Positions 5,160-43,446 are shown, numbered from the stretch's first letter. The stretch is DNA of 64,000 nucleotides from an uncultured Flavobacteriaceae bacterium (GCA_963734985.1 CAVTJB010000003.1:42807-106806), one strand, 5' to 3'. The notes: generated by a model from the sequence alone, not told the origin. Program-made: numbers and translations.

Positions 5160-5325
5160 GGACCTATCTACCGTTGGATATCCCACCCTTCTCCCCATTG
5201 ATTTTTCGATTTCCTGACGGGCACTATTCGAGGCTGTGTTAGTTTCGGATTAAGTTTTTTCAAGATATTGTTTTTCAATGGAATGTGTTGTATTTTGTAG
5301 TTCTAATCCATTAAGATACACCGTC

Positions 5326-5694: not shown

Positions 5695-5709
5695 TAAATC
5701 ACAGGAATT

Positions 5710-6096: not shown

Positions 6097-6120
6097 TGTT
6101 ACCGTGACCCACAAGTTCCT

Positions 6121-10864: not shown

Positions 10865-13102
10865 CTATTTAAGAACCTGATAGGCCGCCAATGCAACAAT
10901 ATACGCAAAAGCACTCATAAAAACCAATTGTGCGAGGGGCCATTTCCAACTATTGGTTTCCCTTTTGACGATAGCCAAGGTACTCATACACTGCATGGCA
11001 AAGGCATAGAATAATAATAGCGATATGCCCGATGCCAGATTGAAAAGGGGCTCACCTGTTTTGGGATTCGTTTCCGCGGCCATCCGGTTTTGGATGGTCT
11101 CTTCTTCATCGCTGCCCACACTGTATATAGTCGCTAGGGTACCGACAAAAACTTCTCGGGCGGCAAAGGAGGTCAAGACGGCAATGCCTATTTTCCAATC
11201 GTATCCCAAGGGCTTTACAACGGGTTCAATGGCCTTTCCCATATTACCGATATAGGAATTTTCGAGTTTATAACTGGATATTTCCTGTTCAAGCGCCTTT
11301 TGTTTAAGTACATCCTCCTTTTGCATTAGAGAATCTTCAATGGCGGGAGGCTCGATGTGATAACGATCGGCAGAAATACTATCCTGCAAGGCTATTTGGT
11401 AATCGGATAGTTCAGCGGCGATATTAGACCGGTTAAAGGCGGAAAATCCATCCTCCTGTACACGCTCCGTAATTATTTCCTCGGCATTCTTGAATCGGTC
11501 GGAATAGCCGTTGGACCCCAAAAACCAAAGGACGATCGAGATGGCCAAAATGATCTTTCCCGCACCGAGAACAAAACTTTTGGTCTTTTCCCAAACCGTA
11601 TAGGCTACGTTTTTAAGGAGTGGCAGTTTGTAATTAGGCATTTCCACCACAAAAAACGAACGCCCCTTAATTTTTAAAATTTTGTTCAACATCATCGCGG
11701 CGAGTACAGAGGTGGCGAAACCGATCAGATAAAGCAGCATCAGGGTCAGTGCCTTGTAGCCAAGACCTAAAAACGTGCCTTCGGGAATGACAAGGGCAAT
11801 GATTATTAGATATATGGGCAAGCGGGCGGAACACGTGGTAAAAGGGATGACCAATATGGTAATCAAGCGTTCCTTCCAGTTTTCAATCGTACGTGTGGCC
11901 ATCACGGCAGGAATGGCACAGGCGGTGCCTGACATCAGGGGTACGACGCTTTTACCGCTAAGACCGAACGGACGCATCAAACGGTCCATCAAAAAGACCA
12001 CTCGGCTCATATATCCGGTTTCTTCCAAAAGGGAAATAAAAAGGAAAAGAAAGGCAATCTGGGGTATGAAAATCACGATGCCACCGATACCGGCCAATAT
12101 TCCCTCAGCGATCAGGTTGGTGAACACCCCTCCCGGAAGGGTGTTTTTTACCCATTCGCTGGCTGCTGCGAAAAGCTCGTCGATGAGGTCCATGGGATAT
12201 TCGCTCCAGGAATAGATGGCCTGGAAGATGGTCAACAATATCAAAAAGAAAATCAGGTAGCCGAAGACTTTGTGCGTCAATATTTTATCAAGGGTCGCCC
12301 GAAACCCTTTGGCCGCAGCGGGATCGACTTTGTAGGTCTCCTTAAGAATGCCGTTGATGAACTGATAACGGAGAATGGTCTCCTTTTGCTGTAGGCGTTT
12401 TAGTTCCGATTTAGATTTGGTGTTGAAAGAAGAGGTATCCTTGACCCCCTTTTTTTCAATGGGCATAAAATTAACGTCCTGAGTAATGACCAGCCATAGC
12501 TTGTAGAGATCTTGTTTGGGAAACGTCGTCTTTAGCTTTTCGAAATATTCTGGGGCAATCAGCGTTATGTCCACATTTTTTGTGGTAGAAAGTGACCGGT
12601 AATCCGAAATCAGTTCCTTTAGTTTTTCGATACCGGTGCCCTTTCGTGTACTGACAAGGGCTATTTTGGTGTCGAGTTTTTCCTCGAGCAGATCGACATC
12701 CAAGGAAATACCTTTGCGTGACATGCGGTCCGCCATATTGATGACCAGAATAGAGGGAATATTCAGGTCCTTCACCTGGGTAAAAAGCAGAAGGTTGCGC
12801 TTCAGATTTTCGATATCGGAAATCACAACGGCCACATCGGGGTGGTCCTTGTCATTTTTGTTCAGCAAGAGTTCGACGGCGACGCTTTCGTCTAAAGAAG
12901 TTGTGTTCAGGCTATAGGAACCGGGGAGGTCGAGAATATGCGCCTTTACGCCCCGCGGAAGTTTACAGATGCCCTCTTTTTTCTCCACGGTGATCCCAGG
13001 ATAATTGCCGACCTTCTGTTTCAGGCCGGTCAATGCGTTAAAAACGGAAGTCTTTCCGGTATTGGGATTTCCTATAAGGGCTACGTTGATCTGCTTGCTC
13101 AT
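10865..13102 (-). CDS. feoB: Ferrous iron transporter B
   Basis: GTPase motifs GNPNTGKT, GNYPGITVE, DLPG and NMAD, followed by a polytopic membrane domain. Confidence 0.97.
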   Translation of the reverse strand: MSKQINVALIGNPNTGKTSVFNALTGLKQKVGNYPGITVEKKEGICKLPRGVKAHILDLPGSYSLNTTSLDESVAVELLLNKNDKDHPDVAVVISDIENLKRNLLLFTQVKDLNIPSILVINMADRMSRKGISLDVDLLEEKLDTKIALVSTRKGTGIEKLKELISDYRSLSTTKNVDITLIAPEYFEKLKTTFPKQDLYKLWLVITQDVNFMPIEKKGVKDTSSFNTKSKSELKRLQQKETILRYQFINGILKETYKVDPAAAKGFRATLDKILTHKVFGYLIFFLILLTIFQAIYSWSEYPMDLIDELFAAASEWVKNTLPGGVFTNLIAEGILAGIGGIVIFIPQIAFLFLFISLLEETGYMSRVVFLMDRLMRPFGLSGKSVVPLMSGTACAIPAVMATRTIENWKERLITILVIPFTTCSARLPIYLIIIALVIPEGTFLGLGYKALTLMLLYLIGFATSVLAAMMLNKILKIKGRSFFVVEMPNYKLPLLKNVAYTVWEKTKSFVLGAGKIILAISIVLWFLGSNGYSDRFKNAEEIITERVQEDGFSAFNRSNIAAELSDYQIALQDSISADRYHIEPPAIEDSLMQKEDVLKQKALEQEISSYKLENSYIGNMGKAIEPVVKPLGYDWKIGIAVLTSFAAREVFVGTLATIYSVGSDEEETIQNRMAAETNPKTGEPLFNLASGISLLLFYAFAMQCMSTLAIVKRETNSWKWPLAQLVFMSAFAYIVALAAYQVLK

Positions 13103-13344
13103 CGGGCGTGTTTATCTTCAAAAACCTCAAGTTCGATGAGCAGGGCCGTTTCCCGGCGGATGGCGATATGGCATCCGTTGACGTTGATATAGAGGGGGTC
13201 TTTGAAGGGAGCGATATGGAGAAGTTCAATTACGTTGCCCGGAAGGCAGCCCAGTTCCAGTAGTTTTATCGGGAGAATGTCATCGGTAAATTCTTTGATG
13301 ATTCCCTTTTGACCCCTTTTCAATTGTGCGACTGTTATCGTCAA
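13099..13344 (-). CDS. feoA: Ferrous iron transport protein A
   Basis: 81 aa with KLLELGCLPG...APFKDP...IAIRRE; overlaps the feoB start. Confidence 0.95.
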   Translation of the reverse strand: MTITVAQLKRGQKGIIKEFTDDILPIKLLELGCLPGNVIELLHIAPFKDPLYINVNGCHIAIRRETALLIELEVFEDKHAR

Positions 13345-14312: not shown

Positions 14313-15671
14313 ATGAGTCCCCTTTTAATAAAGACCATACAGTTTTTCTTAAGCCTATCGTTGCTGATCGTACTGCATGAGCTGGGCCATTTCATTCCCG
14401 CCAAACTTTTTAAGACCCGGGTCGAAAAATTCTACCTCTTTTTTGATGTTAAATTTTCCCTTTTCAAGAAGAAGATCGGAGAGACGGTCTATGGCATCGG
14501 ATGGCTTCCTTTGGGCGGCTATGTGAAGATTGCCGGTATGATCGACGAGAGTATGGACACCGATGCGATGAAGGAAGAACCCAAAGATTGGGAGTTCCGC
14601 AGCAAACCGGCCTGGCAGCGTTTGATCATCATGTTGGGCGGGGTTACCGTCAACTTTATTCTCGCTTTCATTATTTATGTCGGACTGGCCTACGCCTACG
14701 GGGATCAATATATACCTGCGGATAGCCTAAAAGATGGGGTTTCGGTGACGGAAAAGGAAATCGGCGACGAAATCGGAATACAGACAGGCGATAAGATTCT
14801 TGCAGTCGACGGGGAAAAGATTAAAGATTTTCAAAGTGTTTTCATGCATATCATCAATGGTAACTCAATTACCATTGAAAGAGACGGCCAAACCATCGAG
14901 CGGGATATACCGGTGGATTTTATCAATACGCTCATCGATGATACGGACAAAGCGCAGTTTTTGGCCCCGAGGTTCCCTTTCGTGGTTGCTGAAGTTTCCC
15001 CGGAATCGTTAAATAAGGATTCAGGGTTGCAAAAAGAGGATGAAGTGGTTGCCATAGCAGGTCATCAAATTAAATATTTTGATCAGGTCAAGCCGATCTT
15101 GGAAAATTATAGAAACCAAAAGATAGATTTGACCGTAGTTCGCGACAAAAATGTTAAAAAAGAAATTCCCGTAACTATCAACGACTCAGCATTGATCGGG
15201 ATTCGCCCCTACATACCGACCATGAAAGAAATGGAAGAAAGGGGCTTGTTACGCGTAGAAACCGTGAATTACTCGTTGATGGAATCCATTCCCGCTGGCA
15301 TTAATAAAGGGGCAAGCACGTTGACCGGCTATCTAAAACAGTTAAAGAAAATTTTTAATCCCGATACGGGAGCTTACAAGGGGGTCGGAGGTTTTGCCGC
15401 CATCGGCGGCCTATTTCCTGATGTATGGAACTGGCAGGTTTTTTGGGGCACAACCGCTTTTCTGTCCATAATGTTGGCCGTTTTGAACCTGTTGCCTATT
15501 CCGGCCTTGGACGGGGGGCATGTCATGTTCCTGCTCTATGAAATGGTTACCGGAAGGGCGCCCAGCGACAAATTCCTGGAATACGCCCAAATGGTGGGAT
15601 TTTTTCTATTGTTGGCCCTTATACTCTTTGCTAACGGTAACGACCTGTACCGCTGGCTGACGGATAAATAG
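14313..15671 (+). CDS. rseP: RIP metalloprotease RseP
   Basis: HELGH zinc motif, PDZ region and LNLLPIPALDGG. Confidence 0.97.
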   Translation: MSPLLIKTIQFFLSLSLLIVLHELGHFIPAKLFKTRVEKFYLFFDVKFSLFKKKIGETVYGIGWLPLGGYVKIAGMIDESMDTDAMKEEPKDWEFRSKPAWQRLIIMLGGVTVNFILAFIIYVGLAYAYGDQYIPADSLKDGVSVTEKEIGDEIGIQTGDKILAVDGEKIKDFQSVFMHIINGNSITIERDGQTIERDIPVDFINTLIDDTDKAQFLAPRFPFVVAEVSPESLNKDSGLQKEDEVVAIAGHQIKYFDQVKPILENYRNQKIDLTVVRDKNVKKEIPVTINDSALIGIRPYIPTMKEMEERGLLRVETVNYSLMESIPAGINKGASTLTGYLKQLKKIFNPDTGAYKGVGGFAAIGGLFPDVWNWQVFWGTTAFLSIMLAVLNLLPIPALDGGHVMFLLYEMVTGRAPSDKFLEYAQMVGFFLLLALILFANGNDLYRWLTDK

Positions 15672-15684
15672 TAATCGAAATTTG

Positions 15685-15715
15685 TTTGGGACAATTAAAA
15701 AAACAATTATATTTG
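15685..15715 (+). promoter_or_regulatory. tRNA promoter
   Basis: TTTG (15685-15688), a 19-nt spacer, then TATATTTG (15708-15715), matching the Bacteroidota -33/-7 consensus. Confidence 0.75.
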
Positions 15716-15784
15716 CACCCTCTTAAGCTGTTTCGCCTAATACAAAGGGCTTAAGTCCTCGAAGAGACGGTGATTGACATATTT

Positions 15785-15858
15785 TCCTCCATAGCTCAGT
15801 TGGTTAGAGCACCTGACTGTTAATCAGGGTGTCGCTGGTTCGAGTCCAGCTGGAGGAG
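15785..15858 (+). tRNA. tRNA-Asn(GTT)
   Basis: TCCTCCA/TGGAGGA acceptor stem, CCTGA-CTGTTAA-TCAGG anticodon arm and a GGTTCGAGTCC T arm. Confidence 0.97.
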
Positions 15859-15870
15859 CTAAGTGATAGC

Positions 15871-15905
15871 AGGCCTTTCGAGAAATCGAGAGGCTTCTTC
15901 TTTTA
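15871..15905 (+). terminator. Terminator hairpin after tRNA-Asn
   Basis: GCCT-TTCGA-GAAA-TCGAG-AGGC followed by a T-rich tail. Confidence 0.7.
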
Positions 15906-16062
15906 GGGTCTGTACTACATCTGTACAACAAATCGGTTATTTTTGAAACAGCCGTTATGGCCAGTATGTATATCAACTATTGTCCGAAACTTTTGAGAAA
16001 TTAACATACAAGTGAAGAATTCTTGAGCAAAATTATGGATATCCAGAATCTTCTCTAAAATC

Positions 16063-16113
16063 TGCCTGTCACGTCACGCAGGGGGTCGCGGGTTCTAGTC
16101 CCGTCCAGACCGC
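16063..16113 (+). pseudogene. 3' half of tRNA-Asp(GTC), att-like remnant
   Basis: TGCCTGTCACG[TCACG]CAGGGGGTCGCGGGTTCTAGTCCCGTCCAGACCGC covers the anticodon arm to the acceptor 3' strand. There is no 5' half, a 5-bp duplication is present, and the T loop reads TTCTA instead of TTCGA. Confidence 0.8.
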
Positions 16114-16123
16114 TAGTAAAACA

Positions 16124-16153
16124 AGGGCCTCCGAGATATCGGAGACCTTTTTT
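16124..16153 (+). terminator. Terminator hairpin after the tRNA-Asp remnant
   Basis: GG(C)CTCCGA-GATA-TCGGAGACC followed by T6; it resembles the hairpin after tRNA-Asn. Confidence 0.7.
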
Positions 16154-16407
16154 GTTTTCAAATTTCTGCTTATACTCTCGAAATTGAGAATTAATACAAT
16201 TTTTCTTTACGGAAATTTAGATGATTTGATTTTGATTGAATTATATATAAATGAGAGAGGTCATTAGTTAGCCATACCCACGGTTTTCAAAGAAGCAAGT
16301 ACCTTTTTGAAGATTATAGAATCAAATGAATATACTATTTACAGATGGAGCAGACGAAAACTGGCTTAGAATTCTGAAAAGGTATAGGTTCAGCGTATTT
16401 AATAGAA

Positions 16408-17838
16408 TCAAATTTTTGGTACCGAATCCGCCGCCACAAAAAACGCTTCGGTCGGGGGGTCGATTCCGTTATTGATCAAGAGACCGGGCCTTTCCTTTTT
16501 TAGGGATGCCACTGCGTTTTCGGTCACCCCGGTATCCCAAAGATACAGGCTTTTCAGGTTGGGCAAATCTTTAAAGGTAGAAATGCTCTCGTCGGTGATC
16601 GCCGTGCCGTAGATCTTCAACAGCTGCAGGTTCTTCAGGGAGGATAGTTTCCGTACCTCGGTATCGCCCACCGGGGTCCTGTCCAGCTCGAGCCTTTCCA
16701 GGTTGGCAAATGTCGCTATCGCATCGATCTCGTTCCCGCCGACCGGGATCCCGCTCAGGTCGAGTTCCACGATGTTGTCGGCCACCCGCCCGAGATCGGC
16801 AAGGGTCTTGGGGTCATATTCGGGGGGCGGGAAGAATACGGCCCCCAACGCGTCGGAGTTGCCCGCGATACGCGTTATGCTCAAATAGTCGGAAGCCAGG
16901 TTCCGTAGCGTACTGTCCGCCACCTGGGGCAACCTCGCCCATTTTTCCGCGGGGTCGGGCGCCATCATGTCCTTTATAAGACCTGCCAGGGGCTCTCCAT
17001 CGGCCAGCCCGTCGAGCCGCAGCGTATCGGAGGCGCCCGTGGCGATCCACCGTTCCAGGATGGCGATCTCGTTTTCTTCGAGTTGCCTCTTGTCCTCCGG
17101 CGGCATATGGTCCTCGTCGTCCAAAGGCAAATGCACCCTTTTGATCATCTCGCTTTCCTCCGGGCTTCCCGCTACCCATATAGGCCCGTTTTCCCCGCCC
17201 TGCGACAATCCGTCAAAACTGGTCATTACCAGTTCGCCCTTCTGTTTGTTCGGGTTGTGGCACGATACGCACTTGTCGTCCAAGATCCGGAAGACCACGT
17301 CCTTATAAATAATCGGGTTTTCGGGGATCTTATCGTCGGGCCCCTGCGTAGGAAGTGCGAGAAATTCCTCGCCGTGGGTGACCATTCCCCCGTAATGCCC
17401 CGTAAGGCCGATCGTTCCGATCAACAGAACCTGCAATGCCTTGGTGTACATCGCCCTTTCCAGTCCCATGGAGTCCAGGGCGTACCATAGGGCCGCGATC
17501 AGGGCCGTTGCCCCGCCCAACCATTGGTGCCAAAAGAGCAGGTCGCCCTTTATCGGCACCTCCTTGCCCAAAAAGAATCCCAGGATGGCCGTTACCAGGG
17601 CGGACAGAACGGCGACCGTCAGCAGGGGTCCCGGGACCGACCTTCCCGTCAGGCCCAGAAAAATGGCGATCAACAGAAGTACGATGGGAAAGTGCAGTAC
17701 GAGCGGATGCCACCTCCCCAGCCAGGCCACCAGGTCCGGGAGCTCGATATAGGGCTCGAACAACAGGCAGAAGATCAGGAATACGGAGAGCCCGAGGACG
17801 GTGTAGTCGGCCAGGCGATGTTCAGTGGCTGTGGTCAT
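16408..17838 (-). CDS. Membrane-anchored planctomycete-type cytochrome c protein with C-terminal LRR-like domain
   Basis: Four N-terminal TM segments (GRWHPLVLHFPI; GHYGGMVTHG), heme motif CVSCH, HMPP, and leucine-rich repeats (LERLELDRTPV, LKSLYLWDTGV). Confidence 0.88.
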   Translation of the reverse strand: MTTATEHRLADYTVLGLSVFLIFCLLFEPYIELPDLVAWLGRWHPLVLHFPIVLLLIAIFLGLTGRSVPGPLLTVAVLSALVTAILGFFLGKEVPIKGDLLFWHQWLGGATALIAALWYALDSMGLERAMYTKALQVLLIGTIGLTGHYGGMVTHGEEFLALPTQGPDDKIPENPIIYKDVVFRILDDKCVSCHNPNKQKGELVMTSFDGLSQGGENGPIWVAGSPEESEMIKRVHLPLDDEDHMPPEDKRQLEENEIAILERWIATGASDTLRLDGLADGEPLAGLIKDMMAPDPAEKWARLPQVADSTLRNLASDYLSITRIAGNSDALGAVFFPPPEYDPKTLADLGRVADNIVELDLSGIPVGGNEIDAIATFANLERLELDRTPVGDTEVRKLSSLKNLQLLKIYGTAITDESISTFKDLPNLKSLYLWDTGVTENAVASLKKERPGLLINNGIDPPTEAFFVAADSVPKI

Positions 17839-17959
17839 ATAATCGGTATGGGGCGTTTAGTCGTTATCACAAAGTTTTTGGTAGGCGAAGGGCGGTGGGG
17901 GGCGATGGGCCGTACCTCATGGTTCGGCACGATCGGTCCGGTAAGGTTTCGAGCCTTTA

Positions 17960-18961
17960 TCATTTGGCGCCCACTACCGATTCCCCCTCCATATATTCCT
18001 CCCTCACGACCCTGGCGGTCCTATGGTCACCGGTATGGCTCCAACCGGGCGGCATTACGATATACAGGAGTTTGTTCTTGAGGCCCGGGGCGTTCCATAC
18101 GTCCTTGGCCAAGATCACGAATTCCCCGAAATAAACATCCAAAAAGTTACCGGAGTCCACAGGGCGGGTGATGCCGTATTCTACCTTTTCCCCTTTTTTC
18201 TCCTCTTGATAGGTGCCGAAGACACGGTCCCATATATTCAAGAGATTGCAAAAGTTGGTATCGATATACAATGGATTTCTGGCATGGTGTACCCGATGGT
18301 GCGATGGGGTAAGGATAAATTTGCCCACGGCACCGAACCGGGCGTCCCTGACCATATTTTCCCCGACATGTATGAAGGCGCCATAGGTACCGTCAATGAA
18401 CATTATGGCGAACAGCATGGCCGGTTCGACCCCCGCCAAAATGCATACGGTCGTCCTGATGGTATCGGCATAGGGCGCCTCGAGAAAGAAATGGGCATAG
18501 GTCACCGAAAGGTTCATGTTCTCGGGGGCGTGGTGCGTGGAGTGCAGGCACCAGAACAGCCGTACCTTGTGGCCCCAATAGTGGTACAAAAAATGTCCGA
18601 ACTCCCAAACGATATATCCATAGATGAACCAGTACCAGGTAGGGGAGGTCCGTAAAAGCGCATAGGGCTGCAGCCAACCGATGATCAATACGACCATGGC
18701 GATGGCGATAAAACGGCCTACGAACCGGTTGAATATATAGATAAGGAAGGTGACCTTATAGACCTTGGTCTGGGGCTTTTTGTAGACCAGGCCCAAAATA
18801 AACTCCAATAGCACCAATAAGGGGATAATCGGTAGAATAAAGGCGGTAAAGCCATCATACGTGAGGAGTACGCTGTAATCACCTTCCCGTAGAATTTCCC
18901 AGGCATTTTCGATGCCCAGAAAACCGATGATCTCGTCGTATAGGGTTTTAAGGATGTCCAT
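17960..18961 (-). CDS. Sterol desaturase / fatty-acid hydroxylase family membrane di-iron enzyme (alkylglycerol monooxygenase-like)
   Basis: His boxes HFLYHYWGH, HSTHH and HHRVHH, plus DRVFGTY. Confidence 0.88.
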   Translation of the reverse strand: MDILKTLYDEIIGFLGIENAWEILREGDYSVLLTYDGFTAFILPIIPLLVLLEFILGLVYKKPQTKVYKVTFLIYIFNRFVGRFIAIAMVVLIIGWLQPYALLRTSPTWYWFIYGYIVWEFGHFLYHYWGHKVRLFWCLHSTHHAPENMNLSVTYAHFFLEAPYADTIRTTVCILAGVEPAMLFAIMFIDGTYGAFIHVGENMVRDARFGAVGKFILTPSHHRVHHARNPLYIDTNFCNLLNIWDRVFGTYQEEKKGEKVEYGITRPVDSGNFLDVYFGEFVILAKDVWNAPGLKNKLLYIVMPPGWSHTGDHRTARVVREEYMEGESVVGAK

Positions 18962-19097
18962 AGGGGCGTTGCTATTTATCGGATGAAAGTAATTTCACTG
19001 TTAAAAGGCCTCAGCCTTGATGAGCGGGCGGTATGCGGTCGGCATAGTTTGATTTTTTGATATCTTTTCACTAAATACTTATTGCCCATTACTACCC

Positions 19098-20561
19098 TCA
19101 TGCCAACAGGTCCTCGACTACGTTGCCCGCCACATCGGTCAGGCGAAAGCGCCGGCCCTGGTACTTGTAGGTCAGCTGCTCGTGGTCGAGCCCCATGGCA
19201 TACAGCAGGGTGGCGTGGAAATCGTTGATGTGCACGGGGTTTTCCACCACGTTGTACCCGAACTCGTCGGTCAGGCCGTAATTGAGCCCAGGTTTGATGC
19301 CGCCGCCGGCCATCCAGATGCTGAAGGCCCGCGGGTGGTGGTCGCGGCCGTAATTGGTCGGGTCGAAATTGCCCTGGCAGTAGTTGGTACGGCCGAACTC
19401 GCCGCCCCAGACGACCAGGGTATCGTCGAGCATACCGCGCTGTTTAAGGTCGAGCACCAGGGCGGCGGAGGCCTGGTCGACGTCCCTGGCCTGCCCCGCC
19501 ATCTCGTTGGGCAGGTTGCCGTGCTGGTCCCAGCCCTGGTGGTAGAGCTGTACAAAGCGCACGCCGTTCTCGGCCAGCCGCCTTGCCTGAAGGGCGTTGG
19601 CCGCATAGGTGCCCGGCACCTGGCAGTCCTCGCCGTAGAGCCTGATGATGGATTCCGGTTCCTTGGAGATGTCCATCACGTCCGGGACGGACATCTGCAT
19701 CCGGTAGGCCATCTCGTACTGTGCGATGCGCGATTCGATCTCGTCGTCGCCGGTCTCCACATGGTGCAGTCTGTTCAGGGACGATACCTCGTCCAACAGG
19801 TGCCTTTTGTCGGAGCGCGATATGCCGTCGGGGTCGTTCAGGTAGAGTACCGGGTCCTTGCCGGAGCGCAGCAGCACGCCCTGGTGCTTGGAGTCCAAAA
19901 ACCCGCTGGACCAGAGTTTGGAGTACAGCCCCTGGCTGTTGCCCTTGCCCCTTGAGGTCAGCACCACGAAGGAGGGCAGGTTCTTGTTCTCGCTGCCCAG
20001 CCCGTAGCTCATCCACGATCCCATGCTCGGGCGGCCGGACTGTTGGCTGCCGGTCTGGAAAAAGGTGATGGCCGGGTCGTGGTTGATGGCCTCGGTGTGC
20101 ATGCTGCGCACCACGGTGATCTCGTCGGCGATCTTCCCGATATGCGGAAAGTAGTCGCTGACCCAGGTACCGCTCTGCCCGTACTGTTTGAAATCCACCG
20201 CGGGCGGCATCAGGGGGAACCTGTCCTGATCGGCGGTCATACCGGTCAGGCGCTGGCCGTCACGGATCGATGCGGGCAGGTCCTCGCCCATACGCTTGCG
20301 CAGGGCGGGCTTATGGTCGAAGGTCTCGAACTGCGAGGGGGCACCGGCCTGGAACAGGTAGATGACCCGTTTCGCCCTGGGCGCAAAATGCGGAATGCCC
20401 AGCGGTCGGGAAGCCATTTCTTCCGCAGCCTTCCCCTTGAACAGGTCGGGGATCAGCAAGGAACCGAGCGCCAGCGAGCCGATGCCCACGCTCAGCTGCC
20501 CGAAGAAATGGCGCCGGTTGACCTTTAGGGGGTTTTCGTTTTTGTTCTTGCTTTCTTCCAT
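19098..20561 (-). CDS. DUF1501 family protein (Tat-exported, sulfatase/alkaline-phosphatase-like)
   Basis: Tat motif NRRHF, plus AKRVIYLFQAGAPSQFETFD, INHDPA, GWDQH, WGGEFGR and GRDHH. Confidence 0.93.
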   Translation of the reverse strand: MEESKNKNENPLKVNRRHFFGQLSVGIGSLALGSLLIPDLFKGKAAEEMASRPLGIPHFAPRAKRVIYLFQAGAPSQFETFDHKPALRKRMGEDLPASIRDGQRLTGMTADQDRFPLMPPAVDFKQYGQSGTWVSDYFPHIGKIADEITVVRSMHTEAINHDPAITFFQTGSQQSGRPSMGSWMSYGLGSENKNLPSFVVLTSRGKGNSQGLYSKLWSSGFLDSKHQGVLLRSGKDPVLYLNDPDGISRSDKRHLLDEVSSLNRLHHVETGDDEIESRIAQYEMAYRMQMSVPDVMDISKEPESIIRLYGEDCQVPGTYAANALQARRLAENGVRFVQLYHQGWDQHGNLPNEMAGQARDVDQASAALVLDLKQRGMLDDTLVVWGGEFGRTNYCQGNFDPTNYGRDHHPRAFSIWMAGGGIKPGLNYGLTDEFGYNVVENPVHINDFHATLLYAMGLDHEQLTYKYQGRRFRLTDVAGNVVEDLLA

Positions 20562-20695
20562 ATATTTATCCGTTTATCCTCTCATTACGCTTTGGGAAAC
20601 TAGGCCGTTCCGACCGCCTTCCCTACAGGCTACAAGAGCCGAGGTTCAAGAATACATCGACCTGTAAACTGTTAGTACGGGAAGTCCGGACAGTT

Positions 20696-23125
20696 CTATC
20701 TTTTCCCATTGCTCCTTGCTCCTCTCGCCTCCTGTCTTCTGCCTCTTTCTCCTGTCCCCATTCTTAAACTACTCTTTGTTATCGTTTCGTCCAGATTATA
20801 GATGACCTGGGCCGTCAGCATGAGCGCGGCGGTCCGGGCCGGATCGGTACCGCGCTGTTGGTACTCCCCTACCGCGACCAGCTTTTCGGCGTCCGCGATA
20901 TCGTCGCGGTACAGTTCCAGCGCATCGTGGTAATAGTTTTCGAGCGTCAGGAGCTCTTCCTTTTTGGGCGTACGGATCAGGATGCGCCGGAACACCTCCC
21001 CGACCAGGTCCGTATTCTCGGATCCATTGGCCAAGATGTCCTGTGCCATGACCCGGGCGGCCTCCAGTACCTGTACGTCGTTCTGCAGCACCAGGGCCTG
21101 CAGGGGCGTGTTCGTCTTCTGGCGGCGTACCTCCGAGAAATCCCTGGTCGGGGCGTCGAAAATGGTCATGTTCGGCGGGGGCAGGGTACGTTTCCAGAAG
21201 GTGTACAGCGAACGGCGGTACAGGTCGTCGCCACTATCGGGTATGTATTGCGTCAAAATGCCCCGATCGGCACCCGCATTGGTCTCTTCCCACAGTCCCG
21301 CCGGCTGGTAGGGCTTTACGCTGGGGCCCCCGATCTCGTCATTGAGCAGGCCGCTGGTGGCAAGGATGTAGTCGCGTATCATTTCCCCGCTCATCCTAAA
21401 GCGCGGTGCACGGGCCAATAACCTATTTTCGGGATCGGCCCTTTCCAGTTCCGGGCGCATCTCGGAGCGCTGTTGGTAGGTGGCCGAGAGCATTATCTTT
21501 TTGAGCAGGTACTTGGTGTCCCACCCGTGTTCCATAAAGTCCACCGCCAGCCAGTCGAGAAGCTCCGGATGGGTGGGCAGGCTGCCCTGCACCCCGAAGT
21601 CCTCCGAGGTCTCCACGATGCCCCTGCCGAACAGCATGGCCCAGAGCCGGTTCACATAGACCCGGGCGGTCAGGGGGTTTCTGGTATCGGTCAGCCATCG
21701 GGCGAGCCCTAGCCTATTTTTTGGCAGGGTGTCCGAAAAGGCGAAGATGGCGGCCGGCGTACCCGGGCGCACCGAGTCCGTCGGCCGGTCGTATTCGCCC
21801 CGGTCCAGGACATAGGTGGTCCTGGGGGCGGAATCGTTCATGACCATCACGTTGATCTTTTCTTTCCCCTCCAGGTTGACAAAGGAGAGCACGCCTTCCG
21901 TTTCTTCCCTCGAAATGGTCATAAAGGGCGGATCGGCGTAGAACTTCTGGTTCTTGGCCTGCACGGCGTCCATCTGCAGGCCCTTCTCGTCGACCTGGTC
22001 GAAGAACGCGAACATCCCGTAATAGTCCCTCTGCGTAATGGCATCGTACTTATGGTCGTGGCAGCGGGCGCATTCCAGGGTGATCCCCAAAATGCCCTTT
22101 CCCAGGGTATTGGTACGGTCCATCACGTAATTCGTGCGATATTCCTCCTGTATCACCCCGCCCTCCTGCGTGATCGGATGGTTGCGGTTGAACCCGGTCG
22201 CCAGGAGCTGTTCCCTGTTGGCATCGGGCAACAGGTCGCCGGCCAGTTGCCAGGTCAGGAACTTGTCGTAGGGCAGGTTCTCGTTGAAGGCGTGGATGAC
22301 CCAGTCGCGCCAGGGCCACATGGTACGGTAGCTGTCGTCTTGGTAGCCATGGGAATCGGCATAGCGCGCCACGTCGAGCCATGCCTGTGTCATGCGCTCA
22401 CCGTAGGCGGGGGAGGCCAGGAATCCGTCGATGACCTTGGCAATGTCCGCTTCGGATCCGTCCCCCAAAAATTCCTTGACCTTTTCTGGACCGGGGGGCA
22501 GTCCGGTCAGGTCGAGGCTTATCCGGCGGATCAGGGTCTCGTTGGAGGCCCTTTCGGAAGGGTGCAGACCGTTCTCCACCAGTTTCGCCAAAATAAAGGC
22601 ATCGATCTCGTTCTCGCCCCACTCCCTATCCTCCGCATCCGATGTTCCGGTCTTGGGGACCTCGGCCTTTTCGGGGGCCAGGAAGGCCCAATGCTTTTCG
22701 AACCGGGCGCCCTGCTCGATCCATTTCCTGATCAGTTTCTTCTCATAGGAATTCAGGGCCAATTTGGAACCCGGCGGGGGCATCATCCGGTCGGCCTCCT
22801 CCGAAATGATATGTTGGTAGGCACTGCTTGCCCGCAGGTCTCCGGGAACTATCGCAAACTCCCCGGGCGTTTCGGGAAGTTCCCCGAAGGCGGCTTCCTC
22901 AAGGTCCAGTCTCAGCTTTGCCTTGCGCTTGTTGGCGTCCGGCCCGTGGCAGGTATAGCAGTTGTCGGAAAGGATGGGCTTGATATGGAAGTTGTAGTCC
23001 ACCGTCTCGGGCAGTTTCAGCTTCGCATACTCGTCGTCGCCGGAATCAAACAGTCCCTTCTTATAGGTAAAGAGCAATACTAATAGACCTGTAAGTATTA
23101 AAATTATGGCAATTTTTGACTTCAT
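20696..23125 (-). CDS. PSCyt1 cytochrome c + DUF1549 (PSCyt2) + DUF1553 (PSD1) protein
   Basis: CYTCHGPD and CARCHDHKYD heme motifs, WLDVARYADSHG, and RRSLYTFWKR. The natural end is probably NLDETITKE* near 20770, extended by a 1-nt deletion. Confidence 0.93.
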   Translation of the reverse strand: MKSKIAIILILTGLLVLLFTYKKGLFDSGDDEYAKLKLPETVDYNFHIKPILSDNCYTCHGPDANKRKAKLRLDLEEAAFGELPETPGEFAIVPGDLRASSAYQHIISEEADRMMPPPGSKLALNSYEKKLIRKWIEQGARFEKHWAFLAPEKAEVPKTGTSDAEDREWGENEIDAFILAKLVENGLHPSERASNETLIRRISLDLTGLPPGPEKVKEFLGDGSEADIAKVIDGFLASPAYGERMTQAWLDVARYADSHGYQDDSYRTMWPWRDWVIHAFNENLPYDKFLTWQLAGDLLPDANREQLLATGFNRNHPITQEGGVIQEEYRTNYVMDRTNTLGKGILGITLECARCHDHKYDAITQRDYYGMFAFFDQVDEKGLQMDAVQAKNQKFYADPPFMTISREETEGVLSFVNLEGKEKINVMVMNDSAPRTTYVLDRGEYDRPTDSVRPGTPAAIFAFSDTLPKNRLGLARWLTDTRNPLTARVYVNRLWAMLFGRGIVETSEDFGVQGSLPTHPELLDWLAVDFMEHGWDTKYLLKKIMLSATYQQRSEMRPELERADPENRLLARAPRFRMSGEMIRDYILATSGLLNDEIGGPSVKPYQPAGLWEETNAGADRGILTQYIPDSGDDLYRRSLYTFWKRTLPPPNMTIFDAPTRDFSEVRRQKTNTPLQALVLQNDVQVLEAARVMAQDILANGSENTDLVGEVFRRILIRTPKKEELLTLENYYHDALELYRDDIADAEKLVAVGEYQQRGTDPARTAALMLTAQVIYNLDETITKSSLRMGTGERGRRQEARGARSNGKR

Positions 23126-23218: not shown

Positions 23219-23251
23219 AAAATAATTATGTATAGACATATAAACAAGTAT
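23219..23251. repeat. 33-bp direct repeat, copy 1 (contains operator ATGTATAGACAT)
   Basis: AAAATAATTATGTATAGACATATAAACAAGTAT, identical to 24975-25007. Confidence 0.95.
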
Positions 23252-23435: not shown

Positions 23436-24737
23436 TTAGTATTTTATTTTACGGTCTGCCCATTCTTTGAACATCATACTGGATTTTGCCAGAACGCCAG
23501 CTGACCCTTTAAAATCTGCTGATCCAGCTGGTGTTCCATCTATTTTATACCATTCATAAAAACCATCATTTTTCAGTACTCTTTCAAACATGGGTTCTGC
23601 CAAGGTATAGGCTTCTTCAACAAAGTCATTGGCAATCAATTGTTGTATCATTCTTCCTCCAAACCAAGTCCAGTCTCGCCATTTTGGTATTCATACGAAG
23701 CGGAAACATTTTTACCCAAAACTTCAGTCGGATAGGGCGGATACAACGTTAGCCCAATGGATGGTGCTCCTGAAAACTTTACATTGTTTACCATATCAGG
23801 TCAAACGTGGGCTATTTCTTGCTTGCTAAGATACCGGCCTCAATCGCAACTGCCGTACCACCATGGTAGTGAATGGCAGTTTCATCAAAATCTTCTGGAA
23901 AAGGGGAGTCCTTCACATAGATGTGGGGAATAAATTGTTATTCTTCGCATCCATTAGATACTTTTTGCAATTAAGTTTTTATTTTTTCATAGAGATTATC
24001 CCACCTTTGTTTATCCTTGGTTTCAAGTGCAAATTCCTTCATGTTTTTCAAGGCTATGACGAACATTGCGTTGTCATAGATGTCTACTCTCCAGTGGGTA
24101 AGTTCATCAACATCGACTACCGCTCCACCTTCTACTTGCACATCCCCCCCAGTCAAAAGTGGTTGCCCCAATAATGAGGCCATAATCTTCTGAATATCTC
24201 TCCTTTAAGAGATATTCGATTGCCATTGTTAACCTTTCATATATTGTTTTTTCGGCTATTTTTTCATTTAATATGGAACGATTTTTGGTTTTGGCGATAT
24301 ATTTTGAGATTGCCTGGATCAAGGAGGGTTCCTGATCTGTTTCAACCGTATTCTTAAAGCCAATGTGGCCGCGTCGCAGATAGAGAGGTATAGGTGTTTG
24401 GATCTCGCCAAGTAAAGGCTTCTTTGGGGACATAACCATCTAATAGTTCTCCATTTTCTTGTTGAAAATGAAAGAACATTAATAAATTTTCACGAATAAT
24501 TTTTATATCATATTCTTCACAGGATAATTCTATAAAGGTATTCATATCACGTGACCAAACCATTTGATAACCAGAGCCGGCATAAAATCCGTTTTTCATT
24601 AATTTTCTAGCTCTATTCTCGACTTCCTGCATAGATTGATCAGACAATATTTTTTTTGCCAAATCTGATTTTTTGTCATCTTTAGAAATGCATGATACTA
24701 TAAGAAAACACAATATGGCAATACTAACTATTTTCAT
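23436..24737 (-). pseudogene. Six-hairpin (alpha/alpha)6 glycosidase-like lipoprotein, disrupted
   Basis: Lipobox LIVSC, YQMVWSRDMNTF, GATTFDWGD, YQNG.DWTWFG and GFYEWY spread over several frames. In-frame TGA at 23801-23803. Confidence 0.75.
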
Positions 24738-24974: not shown

Positions 24975-25007
24975 AAAATAATTATGTATAGACATATAAA
25001 CAAGTAT
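24975..25007. repeat. 33-bp direct repeat, copy 2 (contains operator ATGTATAGACAT)
   Basis: Identical to 23219-23251; lies between the divergent glycosidase and DUF5005-like genes. Confidence 0.95.
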
Positions 25008-25039
25008 TTTTAACAGATATTGCTTAAATTACCCTAGCT

Positions 25040-26174
25040 ATGCAAGTCAAGTATTTGATATCAAAAATTTCAATATTGATTCTTTCATGTTTCATTTTTT
25101 CTTGCGCAAATGAAAAAAAGAAATCCCAATCGAAGCCTAAAGAGGAAATTGAAACGCGCACCGTTACCGCTGCCGCAAATTTCGAAGATTTGGTCATTGT
25201 CGATAGTCTGGGCGTCACCGGTGCCGATGGGGTAATTTCCTTTCCCTTGGATAGTACTACCTCCATTTTTATGATGGGCGATTCATTCCTAGCACCGGTT
25301 CGCCATAAAAAGAGAGATGTAGATAGCAAGATGATCAATAATACCTTCATCTTGATCAATAAAAATAAGCGCACCCATAAAGCCATATATAGAGGAACCA
25401 TTGAGAATGCCCACGCATTGCTGAAACCTGCTTATGACAATCCTCAAGAATATTATTGGCCAGGTGATGGATTTGAAAAGAACGGAACAATACATATTTT
25501 TATGTCCCGGTTTTTACATGATCACACGGCCTGGGGCTTTGAATTTTCAGGAACGGATTACATTCGAATGGATTCAAAAACATTTGAAATATCTTCGCAA
25601 GAGGACTTCCCCTATTCAAATAGGAACCAAGTGCATTATGGACATTCCGTACTTCATCAGGATGATTATACCTATATCTATGGGGCTTGGAGTACAAAAG
25701 ACTAATCCGCTCTTCATATAGCAAAAGCCACACTTAATCCCGATATCAAAAAACTGGAGCGATTTGAATTTTTCGATGGCAACCATTGGACTTCCGACCC
25801 GGTTAAGAGTGCTCCTTTGGGTGGAATCGAACAACAAATACCGGAACAGTTTTCGGTCTTTAAATATGGTGATTTATACGTTTTGCTTTTACAGGCGAGG
25901 GAACTGGGCAACGGAAATATCTTTTCCTACCTTTCAGATAGCCCGGCGGGGCCATGGCGCAACGAAAAATTACTTTATCATACCACCAAACAAGAAAATA
26001 TCGAGGATTAGTATTACCTACAACGCGATGGCCCATCCCCAATACATAAAAGATAACAAACTATTGGTTTCCTTCTGTGTGAATAGTTTTGAAGTATCGA
26101 AGATTCACGAGGTCAATACCGATTATTATCGCCCCAGGTTCATCTGGGTGCCTTTGGAAATGATTTTGGAGTAG
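25040..26174 (+). pseudogene. DUF5005/DUF4185-like beta-propeller lipoprotein, disrupted
   Basis: Lipobox IFSC, GADG...MGDSF, YYWPGDG, SPAGPW and TYNAMAHP. In-frame TAA at 25703-25705 plus frameshifts. Confidence 0.7.
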
Positions 26175-26185
26175 TTATTTGGTGA

Positions 26186-29100
26186 CTAATTTAGAAGTTT
26201 AAAAATTTTAGGATATGCATTGTTTACGCCCGCGAGTATAAATTGGTCCCCTTGCACACTTTTAAGACTATGGAGATTCCGTACCGCCCCTTTTAGGAAA
26301 AAACCGGAAATCTTTGGTTCAATTACCGAATATTTGCCATCTTTATTGCTAAGCAAAGTGATTCCATAATTGGCATCCAGCCTTCCAAATTGCGGTTTTA
26401 AATCAAAATCGTTTCCTGCCAACAAAATATCCAAAATTCCGTCCTTATTCAGGATATAATGTTTCGATGGCATGAATGCTGGAAAATTGGACCCTCGGCG
26501 GAAGGTCCAACACCTGAAATTCATTATTCCCATGATTATATGCAATCACACTTTTAAAAGTTGAAATATTTTTAACCACGGCACTATTCATAACTTTTTT
26601 TGAAAATAGTTTCTCCATCGATTTCGTTGCGTATTCTGTAGATTTTAAATTGTGTTTATTGAGAGAAGCAATTTCCTTGGTAAGTTCACGGCGAAGATGA
26701 ATGGGAACATCCTTTCCATTGATGGTTCGAGTGAAGTTTGCTCTATTGTACCATTTCCCGTCAAAATCACTTATAAAAACCTTGACCGGTCTATTTTCTT
26801 CCACGTTATAAAATGAATTTGTACCTCGGTTGCCAAGTACAAGGTTTAGGTACAGTTAATCATTGTTAAGATCGGCAATTCGGAGGGAATTCCAAGCTCC
26901 ATTGAGGGAATCCAGATTGCTTGCAATTCTTTTTGCAGTGATTCACCACTGTTCTTGTAGATTTTTGGCGCCTCCCAGTCGCCCACAATTATTAGATCTT
27001 TAATTTTATCCCCATCGATATCTGCCCATGCAGCCTCTGTGACCATCCCTGCTTGACTCAAATCAGCAGCTTTTGCTTTGGGTAACATCACTGTAACTAC
27101 CATTTCCGTCATTTTCAAGAAGTTTATGTTTAGGATTTTGACCCATACTTTCCCGGAACACTTCTACTCCCGATAGAAGAGGTCAATATCGCCATCTCCA
27201 TCATAATCGGCTGCAGCGACTCTAAGAGAAGTATCAGTATTGGAAACAGAGTTATTGGAAGGCAAGAACTTATTTTTTCCTGCGTTTTGATAAATCCGAA
27301 TCGGAAGATTATTTTTATCCTTAGAGGGTATATTTCCTCCGGAAACCACGACTAAATCTAGCATTCCATCGTTGTTGGTATCTTTGAACACAGCGTTTGT
27401 GTCTTCAAATACACTATCTTTTTCAATAGTGGGATTTGTAATAGGTTCGAATTTTCCTGAATCGGTCTGTATATAGATTCTACCGGCCTGATTTTTAGCC
27501 CCGCCCAGAAAGATATCCTCATTCCCGTCGCCGTTAATATCGCCAACAGCAATAGCCGGGCCTTCCCGGGATAGCATTTGCGATACCAAACCTTCATAAT
27601 CGTAATCGATATAATTATCTTCTTCATGCTTCTGAAGATTAATTTCAACGGATGTCATAAGGGTTTCAACTTTTCCCTTTTTACTGTTTGAAAATTTGTC
27701 GACAGGCATCCCGTTGATTAAGACCTCAAGTCCGGTCCACATCGATGTTCTTGATTGATTGGTACGACCCATCGGCCCATATAACCGCAAGGGAATCCAA
27801 TTTTTTTGTGTTTCCGAGACCGAAGGTCAAATTATAATCTACGGAAGACTGAAATCCCCGTGTGCGGATAGATTCCTTGACCAAAAATTGTATCCCCCTT
27901 GTACAATTTAATTTTACTGCCAATTCCAAATTTATTTTTACCGCTTCCCTCTAGTTTGATTTTGATAAAATGATTACTTTCTATTATCTCCGAATTATTT
28001 CTAATACAAATACTTCTTGATTCACATTATTTACCACCAAGTCCAAATCCCCATCATTATCTAAGTCTCCATCGAGGATCCATTAAAAAAACTCGGTTCG
28101 GCGAGACCCCAATCTTTGGTTTTATTGGAAAAAGTCAAATCCTGATTATTATGAAATGCGTAATTCGGAATGGGTGTTGAAGGCATTTTGTTAGTAAGTA
28201 CCTTTACTTGTGGCTCAGAATCAAAGGGCGTCTGGCGAAAGACGTTGTTCGCAAAGAAATCCATAAAATCATTATTGGTAATATCCCTATATATGCCATT
28301 GCTTACGTATAGGTCTTTAAACCCGTCATTATCCATGTCGAAAATAAGGGCGCCCCAGCTCCAATCGGTATATCCATCCCCAAAAATAAGCCGTTTCCGA
28401 AAAACTCCCATCTCCGTTATTTATTTGCAGGGTGTTCTGCATGTATTGGTTATAGAAATCCCGACCCTGTTTCAGTCTAAGAACATTATATGTTTCGAAT
28501 CCTCCGTTTTCTTTGAGCCTTTTATCCTCTTTAGGCCGCATGTCTGTGGCAAAAACTTCTGGAAGTCCGTCGTTGTTCAAATCTGCCATGTCCGACCCCA
28601 TGGAAGAAAAACTCAGATGCTGCATATAGCCTTCAATTTCTTCCTTAAAAGTGCCGTCTCCTTGGTTAACATATAAATAATCGCGTTCATAAAAATCATT
28701 TGAGACATAAATATCCGGAAGATTATCATTATTGACATCCCCTACGGTAACTCCCAATCCAAAACCAATTAAACTACCATATATTCCAGCTTCTTCACTA
28801 ACATCGACAAATTTATCATCATCATTGCGCAAAAGTTTGTCGCCACCGCCTTTTAGAACTTCCGGAACATTCCAATTTTCGCTTCTTAGATTTCGTTTGT
28901 TCACATAATTGAGGCTGCTTCCCGGAATGAAGCTATTGTTCAAGATATATACATCCAGATCCCCATCCCCATCATAATCAAAAAAAGCCGCATAGGTAAT
29001 GAAGCCATTCTCGTCCAAATTCTACTTTGGCCGCCGATTCGCTGAAGGTAAGGTCGCCAGTGATTAATAAAAAGTTCATTCTTTTTATCGGCATTACCGG

Positions 29101-42702: not shown

Positions 42703-43446
42703 CTATACCTCCCTCTTAATATCAATGTCATAGGTGAAATGGTCGGTGTGATAGAAAACGATGTTGTATTCAACGGGTCTCTCTCCTACGTCCAACACTA
42801 GTCTTTCTCTTCTTAATATTGCCATTCCCGTATCGAGGTCTAGCATTGCCGCCATTTTATTATCGGCTTTTATAGCCCGTAATTTTTCTTTTGAGGTGGT
42901 CACGATAACATTGTGCTCCTGCTCCAATAGCTCGTACAAGGGCCTTCTAAAGTTATCATCGCTCTTGATGCCTATCCTAGGATGAAAATAGGAGACCGAA
43001 TAGAGATATTTGGCGTCCTTGGAACCTCTTATTTTTTCCAATTTCCAGACTTTTTTGGATTTGTCAATAGACAATGCCTTTTGAACTTCGCTGTCCGGAA
43101 TTACCAAAACGGCGTTGACCAAATAGTTGACAACCTCTATGCCTTGATTCCGCATTTCCTTCGTAAAACTGATCCAATTATCCAGTCTTGTGGAAATTCT
43201 TTGGGTCGCTACCTTGGTTCCTACTCCTTTTTTCCGTTCTATAAGTCCTTCATGGACTAACTTATTGATGGCCTGCCGAATAGTGTTTCTCGAAACCCCA
43301 AGTTTCATGGACATGGCCACCTCCTTCGGTAGAAATTTATCTCCATTTCGGTATTCTTTCCGGGTTATGAGTTCACGCAAATATTCTTCGATCTGCGCAT
43401 GTAAAGGTATAGGACTGTCTTGGTCTAACTTAAAATCCATAGGCAC
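42703..43446 (-). CDS. GntR family regulator, HutC/UTRA subfamily (intact)
   Basis: wHTH with LPKE...VSRNTIRQA...GVGT and a C-terminal UTRA domain (LYELLE, RERL, PVEY). Confidence 0.95.
   Translation of the reverse strand: MPMDFKLDQDSPIPLHAQIEEYLRELITRKEYRNGDKFLPKEVAMSMKLGVSRNTIRQAINKLVHEGLIERKKGVGTKVATQRISTRLDNWISFTKEMRNQGIEVVNYLVNAVLVIPDSEVQKALSIDKSKKVWKLEKIRGSKDAKYLYSVSYFHPRIGIKSDDNFRRPLYELLEQEHNVIVTTSKEKLRAIKADNKMAAMLDLDTGMAILRRERLVLDVGERPVEYNIVFYHTDHFTYDIDIKREV

Follow-up and report, generated by a model that had tools for sequence, protein, structure and literature searches.

Two near-identical loci for a conserved DUF1501-DUF1553-cytochrome c unit in a flavobacterial genome, probably homogenised by gene conversion

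The PSCyt and PSD domains were first named in Rhodopirellula baltica, and modules combining them with DUF1501 proteins have drawn attention since 2004-2012 in Planctomycetota and Verrucomicrobiota, organisms that are genetically hard to handle; DUF1501 with its PSCyt/DUF1553 partners is among the largest conserved yet uncharacterised protein systems. The module has been described as conserved, membrane-targeted and probably electron-transferring, with no function assigned (PMC3542564, Kamneva et al. 2012), and was described again by He et al. 2017 (PMC5615132). In its "PVC" form (Planctomycetota, Verrucomicrobiota, Lentisphaerota), a DUF1501 gene lies adjacent to, and co-oriented with, a PSCyt1/PSCyt2/PSD1 gene, the DUF1501 protein bears a twin-arginine (Tat) signal and its partner CxxCH motifs, and carbohydrate-linked, membrane-targeted electron transfer has been proposed; nothing beyond comparative genomics was found in the literature on the function of DUF1501, DUF1553, DUF1549 or DUF2231. 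The locus described here lies in a 64,000-nt stretch of DNA (the window) from an uncultured Flavobacteriaceae bacterium (GCA_963734985.1 CAVTJB010000003.1:42807-106806) and belongs to this already described kind: the adjacent co-oriented pair (in the window and about 60 loci), the Tat signal and the CxxCH motifs by which Kamneva et al. (2012) recognised the module are all found. It differs from the PVC module in that the Flavobacteriaceae version adds a constant third partner, a DUF2231-cytochrome c protein with leucine-rich repeats (LRR), and in that the sublineage in question has an inserted fatty-acid hydroxylase and two apparently homogenised loci, one behind a HutC-type operator. What is added to the published picture is this constant partner in Bacteroidota, a natural gene fusion, the relocation of the hydroxylase, a probable two-locus conversion and, in a minority of loci, the link to the HutC-type operator.

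In the window, four genes stand in a row, here called P0001 (PSCyt1-DUF1549-DUF1553), P0002 (DUF1501), P0003 (hydroxylase) and P0004 (cytochrome c/LRR), which a preliminary description had taken for one four-gene system. The conserved unit, however, consists of three genes, for PSCyt1-DUF1549-DUF1553, Tat-DUF1501 and DUF2231-cytochrome c-LRR proteins. A survey with each species represented by a single genome found 69 loci that encode a relative of P0004, mostly in Flavobacteriaceae (Pricia, Arenibacter, Maribacter, Zobellia, Ulvibacterium, Kriegella and others) and otherwise in Saprospiraceae, Chitinophagaceae and Flammeovirgaceae. The three genes are conserved together in this set; they are consecutive in nearly all loci surveyed, with close linkage in about 60 Flavobacteriaceae loci and in the other three families, while a hydroxylase between the DUF1501 and P0004-type genes is confined to four loci (see below). 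The DUF1501 stop codon is typically 1-9 nt from the start codon of the P0004-type gene. All 55 P0001 homologues keep both CxxCH motifs, of which the second reads ECARCHDHKYD, and the arrangement CxxCH...MP is conserved in all of these as well as in 67/67 P0004 homologues; the latter also share HPxxxHxP (67/67) and GHxGGxxxHG (66/67), and all 65 DUF1501 proteins have the Tat motif RRxF. DUF1501 is the most constrained component, with a median identity to the window protein of 88% across genera, followed by DUF1553 (74%) and P0004 (60%). As an observation apart, tandem or extra DUF1553 genes alone occur beside a single DUF1501 gene in some genomes (L007:3705-8525; L051:6561-8525 and 14325-16667; such L numbers denote related loci, G000 the genome of the window and C1, C2, C3 and C6 its contigs).

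That the cytochrome c/LRR protein and the DUF1553 protein belong together is also indicated by paralogous modules in G000. At C6:810870-816375, the gene for a fusion protein precedes those for DUF1501 and a Tat-type NHL/PAL-like propeller; the first gene (C6:810870-813710) encodes one 946-aa protein comprising DUF2231, PSCyt1, DUF1549 and DUF1553 as well as a GH2_N/rhamnosidase-N-like sugar-binding insert. Such a "Rosetta-stone" fusion argues that P0004 and P0001 act together, putatively as a physical complex. In a third module (C1:586620-595003), the order is DUF1553, DUF1501, a TIM-barrel gene, DUF2231-PSCyt1 and then a Na/sulfate-symporter-family gene; the TIM-barrel gene, which is xylose-isomerase-like, holds the slot equivalent to that of P0003.

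Pfam and motif searches recovered the four co-oriented minus-strand open reading frames (ORFs) of the window with all the domains and motifs previously assigned to them. P0001 matches PSD1/DUF1553 (344.6 bits), PSCyt2/DUF1549 (290.6 bits) and PSCyt1 (51.6 bits) and carries the heme motifs CYTCH at residue 56 (CYTCH...MPP) and CARCH at residue 352 (ECARCHDHKYD); P0002 matches DUF1501 with 522.6 bits and has the twin-arginine motif NRRHFF as well as GWDQH and GRDHH. P0004 carries CVSCH at residue 190 (CVSCH...MPP) in a PSCyt1 domain (53.5 bits; like P0001 it exceeds the PF07635 cut-off of 22 bits), and its C-terminal part is matched by LRR_4 (27.8 bits) and other LRR models. The model for DUF2231 (PF09990) reaches E=0.37 on P0004 itself, whose four-helix domain has conserved His residues, and 46.9 bits (cut-off 26.4) and 25.1 bits on its paralogues in G000. 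This protein had been counted as a cytochrome with four transmembrane helices; it contains five hydrophobic segments: an N-terminal helix and then the four helices of the DUF2231-type domain. That the products are extracytoplasmic is supported by the Tat motif of P0002, a signal anchor, and a membrane domain followed by c-type heme motifs.

The unit exists twice in G000: the window copy is on contig C3, and blastn and MAFFT identified a second copy on contig C1. The two share a tract with 98.24% identity over 6657 nt, in which 100%-identical runs of up to approximately 1.6 kb alternate with patches of 88-96%. The tract ends inside the terminal genes, at 16 nt from the stop codon of P0004 and at 49 nt from the start codon of P0001. 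Mosaic identity, together with edges inside the terminal genes, points to gene conversion. The C1 copy is colinear with L001, from the nearest relative of G000, a metagenome-assembled genome, over 13.7 kb; upstream it is neighboured by genes for an LRR protein, a Gfo/Idh/MocA protein, an FGE-like protein and YceI, downstream, at 12 nt, by an SDR gene and then by one for a Tat-exported Gfo/Idh/MocA protein. The same pattern recurs in a second genome, where L040 and L042, approximately 340 kb apart on one 1.4-Mb contig, share a 5.2-kb block of 99.66% identity whose edges coincide with the ends of the unit. In a DUF1553 tree (IQ-TREE) the copies pair by genome and not by context, those of the window and C1 with support of 100/100 and those of L040 and L042 with near-zero branches. 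The window and C1 loci thus appear from their sequences to be under concerted evolution, the former being overwritten from, or exchanged with, the canonical C1 copy.

Two near-identical copies could also be an artefact of assembly or binning, one locus having been assembled twice from two strains, and indeed the assembly of this 4.5-Mb genome is fragmented into 11 contigs at 92% completeness. It is nevertheless very improbable: the contigs carrying the copies are large (845 kb and 379 kb), the two copies have different, unique flanks, the related genomes syntenic with the flank of one are not those syntenic with the flank of the other, and the other genome has both of its copies on a single contig. 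Each copy in G000 carries one lesion. In the C1 copy, P0004 is frameshifted near codon 53, at a site that corresponds to window position 17678; in the window, a 1-nt deletion (G) in the last codon of P0001, at approximately 20778, replaces the native C-terminus (...ETITKE followed by the stop codon), invariant in homologues and in the C1 copy, by a non-native tail of 24 residues. The unit, which had been called essentially undamaged, is therefore intact in its ORFs overall but not at the C-terminus of P0001.

Table 1. Features of the window, with positions counted from its first nucleotide
Feature	Position	Strand	Remarks
P0001	20696..23125	-	809 aa; N-terminal membrane anchor, PSCyt1, DUF1549/PSCyt2, DUF1553/PSD1
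P0002	19098..20561	-	487 aa; Tat-exported DUF1501, presumed catalytic subunit, alkaline phosphatase/sulfatase-class fold
P0003	17960..18961	-	333 aa; membrane di-iron fatty-acid-hydroxylase/sterol-desaturase family
P0004	16408..17838	-	476 aa; N-terminal helix, DUF2231-type domain, PSCyt1, C-terminal LRR
Tract shared with second copy	16424..23076	.	Second copy at G000 C1:798333-804988; blastn, MAFFT
HutC/GntR-type palindromic operator TATGTCTATACATA	23227..23240	.	Approximately 100 nt 5' of P0001 start codon
Operator, second copy	24983..24996	.	Ancestral divergent promoter region beside c33
c80 pseudogene, glycosidase-like (approximately 430 aa)	23454..24731	-	At least 5 fragments, between c33 and P0001
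c33, DUF4185/DUF5005-like lipoprotein gene	25037..26171	+	Interrupted near 26008
GntR/HutC-family regulator (GntR helix-turn-helix + UTRA)	42703..43446	-	Pfam; presumed operator binder
FG-GAP/ASPIC fragments	26195-29485		
SusD fragments	29662-31162		
GH92 fragments	35.5-37.7 kb; 46.3-49.4 kb		
NHL/6-bladed propeller, Tat-type	37983-39081		Frameshift near 38470; 80% identical to Arenibacter echinorum gene
tRNA-Asn (GTT)	15785..15859	+	ARAGORN, Rfam; island edge on P0004 side

The decay of the adjacent locus, noted before, was borne out: the genes for SusD, the FG-GAP/ASPIC protein, GH92 and the NHL propeller as well as c33 and c80 are all in pieces, and open frames of 150 codons or longer cover 0.52-0.65 of this region as opposed to a genome median of 0.88 (5th percentile, 0.64). 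As the low coverage is specific to the region, uniform sequencing error is an unlikely cause. The unit is probably intact and GC-rich amid this decayed island because of gene conversion with the C1 copy. It would be a clean bacterial example of two-locus conversion in which a paralogue stays intact although the locus around it decays, and it cautions that being intact among pseudogenes need not mean selection on the local context.

The GC content rises from 0.38-0.44 in the flanks to 0.51-0.63 exactly across the block, and the tRNA-Asn gene is 550 nt from the block's end; both features would also be expected of a recently acquired foreign island integrated at that tRNA gene. This candidate was rejected and is regarded as extremely unlikely, since the same GC-rich sequence sits in the vertically inherited C1 locus, in L001 and in Pricia antarctica (which is why the GC step is so sharp), the tree agrees with the taxonomy of the Pricia clade, and the block's edges are inside homologous genes, with flanks syntenic with Flagellimonas; searches revealed neither an integrase nor a mobile-element gene, the end of the tRNA gene is not directly repeated, and no repeats of note lie in or around the unit. 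GC content at third codon positions (GC3) is 0.75-0.86 in the unit and 0.45-0.57 in neighbouring genes (window 16408-23125; L004:5595-11440); elsewhere the unit has 0.65-0.78 in P. antarctica and 0.41-0.42 in Flagellimonas and Zobellia, and P0003 has 0.67 in the window versus 0.53 for its P. antarctica orthologue at the ancestral site. One possibility is that the high GC3 of the unit stems from GC-biased gene conversion.

The two loci of G000 differ in the sequence in front of P0001. There, a palindromic operator of the HutC/GntR type (Table 1) was spotted by eye and then followed by pattern search, a 14-mer scan for motifs 5' of P0001 (one mismatch allowed) having given nothing. It is a partial duplicate (core of approximately 33 bp) of the operator region beside c33, whose extended flank aligns with the c33/DUF1553 intergenic region of L002 and L042. 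Six copies of the 12-nt core ATGTNTANACAT lie in the window (at 23228, 24984, 37842, 42531, 46104 and 59302), where 1.8 would be expected, the pattern GT-N-TA-N-AC being repeated at the heads of island genes; in the 4.5-Mb genome outside the window no match to the palindromic operator was found, nor is there one upstream of the C1 copy. Among 1.2 Mb of related loci, at the stringency used, the same site was found only in L002, L042 and L047, each time 89-126 nt 5' of DUF1553, and the intergenic sequence that holds it is alignable across the window and these three. The GntR/UTRA protein of the island presumably binds the operator TATGTNTANACATA sites; its orthologue, with 75% identity, is present in the operator-bearing L042, which also has GH92 and ROK genes. 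The known HutC/GntR repressors with dre-like operators (NagR/YvoA, DasR) likewise combine a regulator of GntR helix-turn-helix and UTRA domains with a repeated palindromic operator; unlike their amino-sugar regulons, the regulon predicted here is an alpha-mannoside island.

Further genes accompany the operator. The lipoprotein gene c33, for which tblastn gave 57-67% identity to L002, L042 and L047 proteins in two high-scoring segment pairs and Pfam a DUF4185 match below cut-off (E=1.3e-7), lies next to the unit, in divergent orientation, wherever a locus has the operator. The pseudogene c80, for which no Pfam or NCBIfam match was obtained, was found by tblastn with L047:11464-12756 and L042:1037-1858 and has a copy of the duplicated operator core on either side. 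L047 and the window share synteny in FG-GAP/ASPIC, hydroxylase, c33, operator, three-gene unit, c80, GH92, MFS, ROK, GH92 and MPI-like genes. A random recent segmental duplication without any link to mannan was rejected as the origin of the window copy by the shared operator, c33, c80, FG-GAP, GH92 and ROK synteny; this synteny with L047 and L042 indicates that the window site is an old second locus.

The mannan link proposed before has fared unevenly: an operator restricted to the island lies 5' of P0001, but GH92 genes are rare beside the unit, with only 2/69 loci having one within 10 kb. Across loci, the commonest neighbours encode FGE-like proteins (28), YceI (28), the SDR 12 nt downstream (25), DUF2807 (20) and M20 amidohydrolases (19), followed by FAH-family proteins (15), Gfo/Idh/MocA proteins (13 and 8), ApbE (9), NHL propellers (7) and sulfatases (6); by NCBIfam, below curated cut-offs, there is a resemblance of the FAH protein to 2,4-didehydro-3-deoxy-L-rhamnonate hydrolase and of the Tat-exported Gfo/Idh/MocA protein to glycoside 3-dehydrogenase. 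On gene order and operator, the mannoside link of the unit appears real but narrow. As the island and canonical copies are kept nearly identical, the specificity of the enzyme cannot be one for mannan in particular; the two loci seem to differ in regulation, not in product.

The DUF1501 protein, presumably the catalytic subunit, had been likened to the sulfatase/alkaline phosphatase (AP) fold, and this likeness holds. Foldseek, AlphaFold2 and hhalign were applied using a 65-sequence alignment; the resulting AlphaFold2 model has a pLDDT of 87.8, while a first, shallow alignment of 36 sequences with 69-88% identity had yielded a model of only 57, which was discarded without a fold search. The top 50 Foldseek matches all belong to the AP superfamily with a probability of approximately 1.0, though with TM-scores of only 0.26-0.37 and 8-13% identity; they comprise S1 sulfatases, LtaS, PMH and AP. 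Aligned by hhalign with true sulfatases of related loci, DUF1501 scored a probability of 72% (E=3e-5; columns 352-455, 96 columns), pairing its ...TLVxWGGEFGR with ...TIVxFTSDNG of the sulfatases; the shallow alignment had given 9% only. A sequence search of P0001 and P0002 against PDB had no match for either, and profile searches with them gave marginal hits only, including an arylsulfatase (E=0.29); the DUF1501 profile gave weak matches, all in the AP superfamily (LtaS, 0.009; S1_8 sulfatase, 0.04; GALNS, 0.11). For DUF1549 and DUF1553 no solved relative was found, and the PSCyt1 part marginally matches the cytochrome FoxE (E=0.29). Eleven residues of DUF1501 are invariant (G73, K84, H161, D345, H347, E388, G390, R391, G405, R406 and H408), and S76 and D82 nearly so.

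With the S1 formylglycine sulfatases (choline sulfatase, 6FNY; carbohydrate sulfatases, 8DI0 and 6PSM) DUF1501 shares the core fold and an alignable motif before the metal site. It departs from them in its low similarity, in being Tat-exported with obligate cytochrome partners and in having its own invariant set; PF00884 has no match, and the formylglycine signature C/S-x-P-x-R occurs in 3/65 aligned DUF1501 proteins in no fixed column. An AP-class fold together with a missing signature places DUF1501, as modelled, in the AP/sulfatase fold class but not among formylglycine sulfatases. It might still be an ordinary periplasmic hydrolase (a phosphatase, phosphodiesterase or non-formylglycine sulfatase) which trims substituted glycans while the cytochromes anchor, mature or regulate it. 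Such a role would suit the fold class, a conserved Ser/Asp/His/Glu set typical of metal-dependent AP-superfamily hydrolases, the location of the window copy in a glycan island, and the neighbourhoods: 6 loci have true sulfatases, and 28 an FGE-like gene, no more than 10 kb away. However, the FGE-like neighbour resembles PvdO/GldK-type proteins, below any cut-off for a true FGE, and Tat export suggests cofactor loading in the cytoplasm; three universal CxxCH motifs, Met-Pro after each PSCyt1 motif and a His-rich membrane domain are unlikely to be mere anchors. These points, with the absent formylglycine signature, make an ordinary hydrolase rather unlikely, if still a serious contender.

The hydroxylase P0003 scores 80.7 bits with PF04116 (FA_hydroxylase; cut-off 31) and has three to four hydrophobic segments and the His boxes HFLYH, HSTHH and HHRVHH, and thus shares score, membrane segments and boxes with the superfamily of OlsE, sterol desaturases and sphingolipid hydroxylases; it is unlike OlsE in that it reaches 50.6 bits with the OlsE equivalog NF052566, against a cut-off of 475, and in that its gene ancestrally adjoined one for a lipid A late acyltransferase. 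A gene of this type stands between DUF1501 and P0004 in the window, the C1 copy, L001 and L023 only (4/69 loci), while P0003 orthologues with 75-92% identity are widespread across the family; in P. antarctica and Maribacter flavus the orthologue is directly 3' of a co-oriented Lip_A_acyltrans (PF03279) gene adjoining glmM. In G000 this ancestral site is empty (C2:719855-719952), acyltransferase and glmM being approximately 97 nt apart without a hydroxylase, and the only close copies of P0003 are the two within the units. P0003 therefore seems to be a native gene of the envelope-lipid type which left its site beside the lipid A late acyltransferase and joined the unit in this Pricia sublineage. 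Flagellimonas sediminis has a single orthologue, which is beside the unit in another slot, between the FG-GAP gene and c33; two distinct arrangements of the hydroxylase with the module suggest a functional or regulatory tie.

Such a tie, in two arrangements and two genera, could mean that the module modifies envelope lipids or glycolipids, as a head-group transferase or hydrolase of the LtaS/EptA kind with the hydroxylase as its true partner; all its proteins are membrane-associated and LtaS is among the best profile and Foldseek matches. LtaS and the phosphoethanolamine transferases (2W8D, 2W5Q) do share an extracytoplasmic AP-fold domain with DUF1501, but their sequence matches are not significant (E=0.009-0.26), and DUF1501 is without the large N-terminal, multi-helix membrane domain fused to the enzymes of the LtaS/EptA type. 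Further, the hydroxylase adjoins so few of the units, the neighbours are mostly soluble sugar-metabolism genes, and paralogous modules carry sugar-binding inserts; an envelope-lipid function is thus quite improbable.

The redox reading can be outlined as follows. All three core products would face the periplasm at the inner membrane, P0001 by its N-terminal helix, P0004 by its five helices and P0002 via Tat. DUF1501 would be the catalytic subunit of a complex, acting in the periplasm on a small, carbohydrate-derived substrate, and the c-type hemes of P0001 and P0004, with the His-rich DUF2231 domain, would wire its reaction to the quinone pool and the respiratory chain, which would make the module a membrane-wired redox enzyme rather than a plain hydrolase. 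This mechanism fits both the proposal published for the PVC module and the sugar-oxidation flavour of many neighbours. The window copy would be a second, island-type locus behind the HutC-type operator of the alpha-mannoside island, a placement shared with F. sediminis and two other lineages. Taken together, a module of three components on the periplasmic side of the inner membrane, to which the hydroxylase is not core, with the window holding an operator-linked island locus homogenised by conversion, is judged slightly more probable than its negation.

Several points weigh against this reading. Only the GC content and the P0003 insert in L001 speak for a direction of conversion, and the 1-nt indels in the last codon of the window's P0001 and near codon 53 of the C1 P0004 could be assembly errors; high GC3 is also seen in P. 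antarctica, where a single locus was recovered, so that conversion between two copies is not the full explanation. The TM-scores of DUF1501 are low, and, to our knowledge, a redox role for it is without precedent in the AP superfamily, which consists of hydrolases and transferases. Searches of the literature and PDB found neither experiments nor solved structures for DUF1501, DUF1549, DUF1553 and DUF2231, whence heme attachment and electron flow are deduced from motifs only, and the gene neighbourhoods are heterogeneous, with no single substrate emerging.

The most far-reaching version, that the triad is a new class of membrane-wired periplasmic redox enzyme with a sulfatase-type fold lacking formylglycine, which oxidises or reduces sugar-derived substrates, delivers the electrons to the respiratory chain and in this lineage is encoded at two differently regulated loci, one of them mannoside-inducible, that gene conversion keeps identical, is put forward tentatively, as less likely than not, and would, if true, be a non-hydrolytic route of glycan processing common to roughly 27,000 DUF1501 clusters (26,998 at 50% identity in an exhaustive search). 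The compact three-gene version occurs in culturable Flavobacteriaceae (Pricia, Flagellimonas, Maribacter, Zobellia and Arenibacter), and the fusion, the invariant residue set and the possible mannoside inducer make the module's function directly testable.

Some minor observations on the window and its relatives may be added. In the decayed region, an 881-aa ORF (31510-34155) occupies the slot, 5' of the SusD fragments, expected of a SusC-like transporter; it has no Pfam match at E<=0.001. Propellers of the NHL kind encoded at 37983-39081 accompany DUF1501 modules elsewhere. In L001, the N-terminal half of DUF1553 is out of frame (4885-7194), which leaves a 440-aa ORF and may be a real lesion or an assembly error. 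Between the tRNA-Asn gene and P0004, 42 nt (16073-16114) are 97.6% identical to G000 C6:846481-846522. Finally, a dispersed MITE/REP-like repeat (miniature inverted-repeat transposable element/repetitive extragenic palindrome) of approximately 165 nt is present in dozens of copies of 76-95% identity on all large contigs of G000 and in its nearest relative, for example at L001:3991-4159 and 12974-13137 and at G000 C1:796620-796780.

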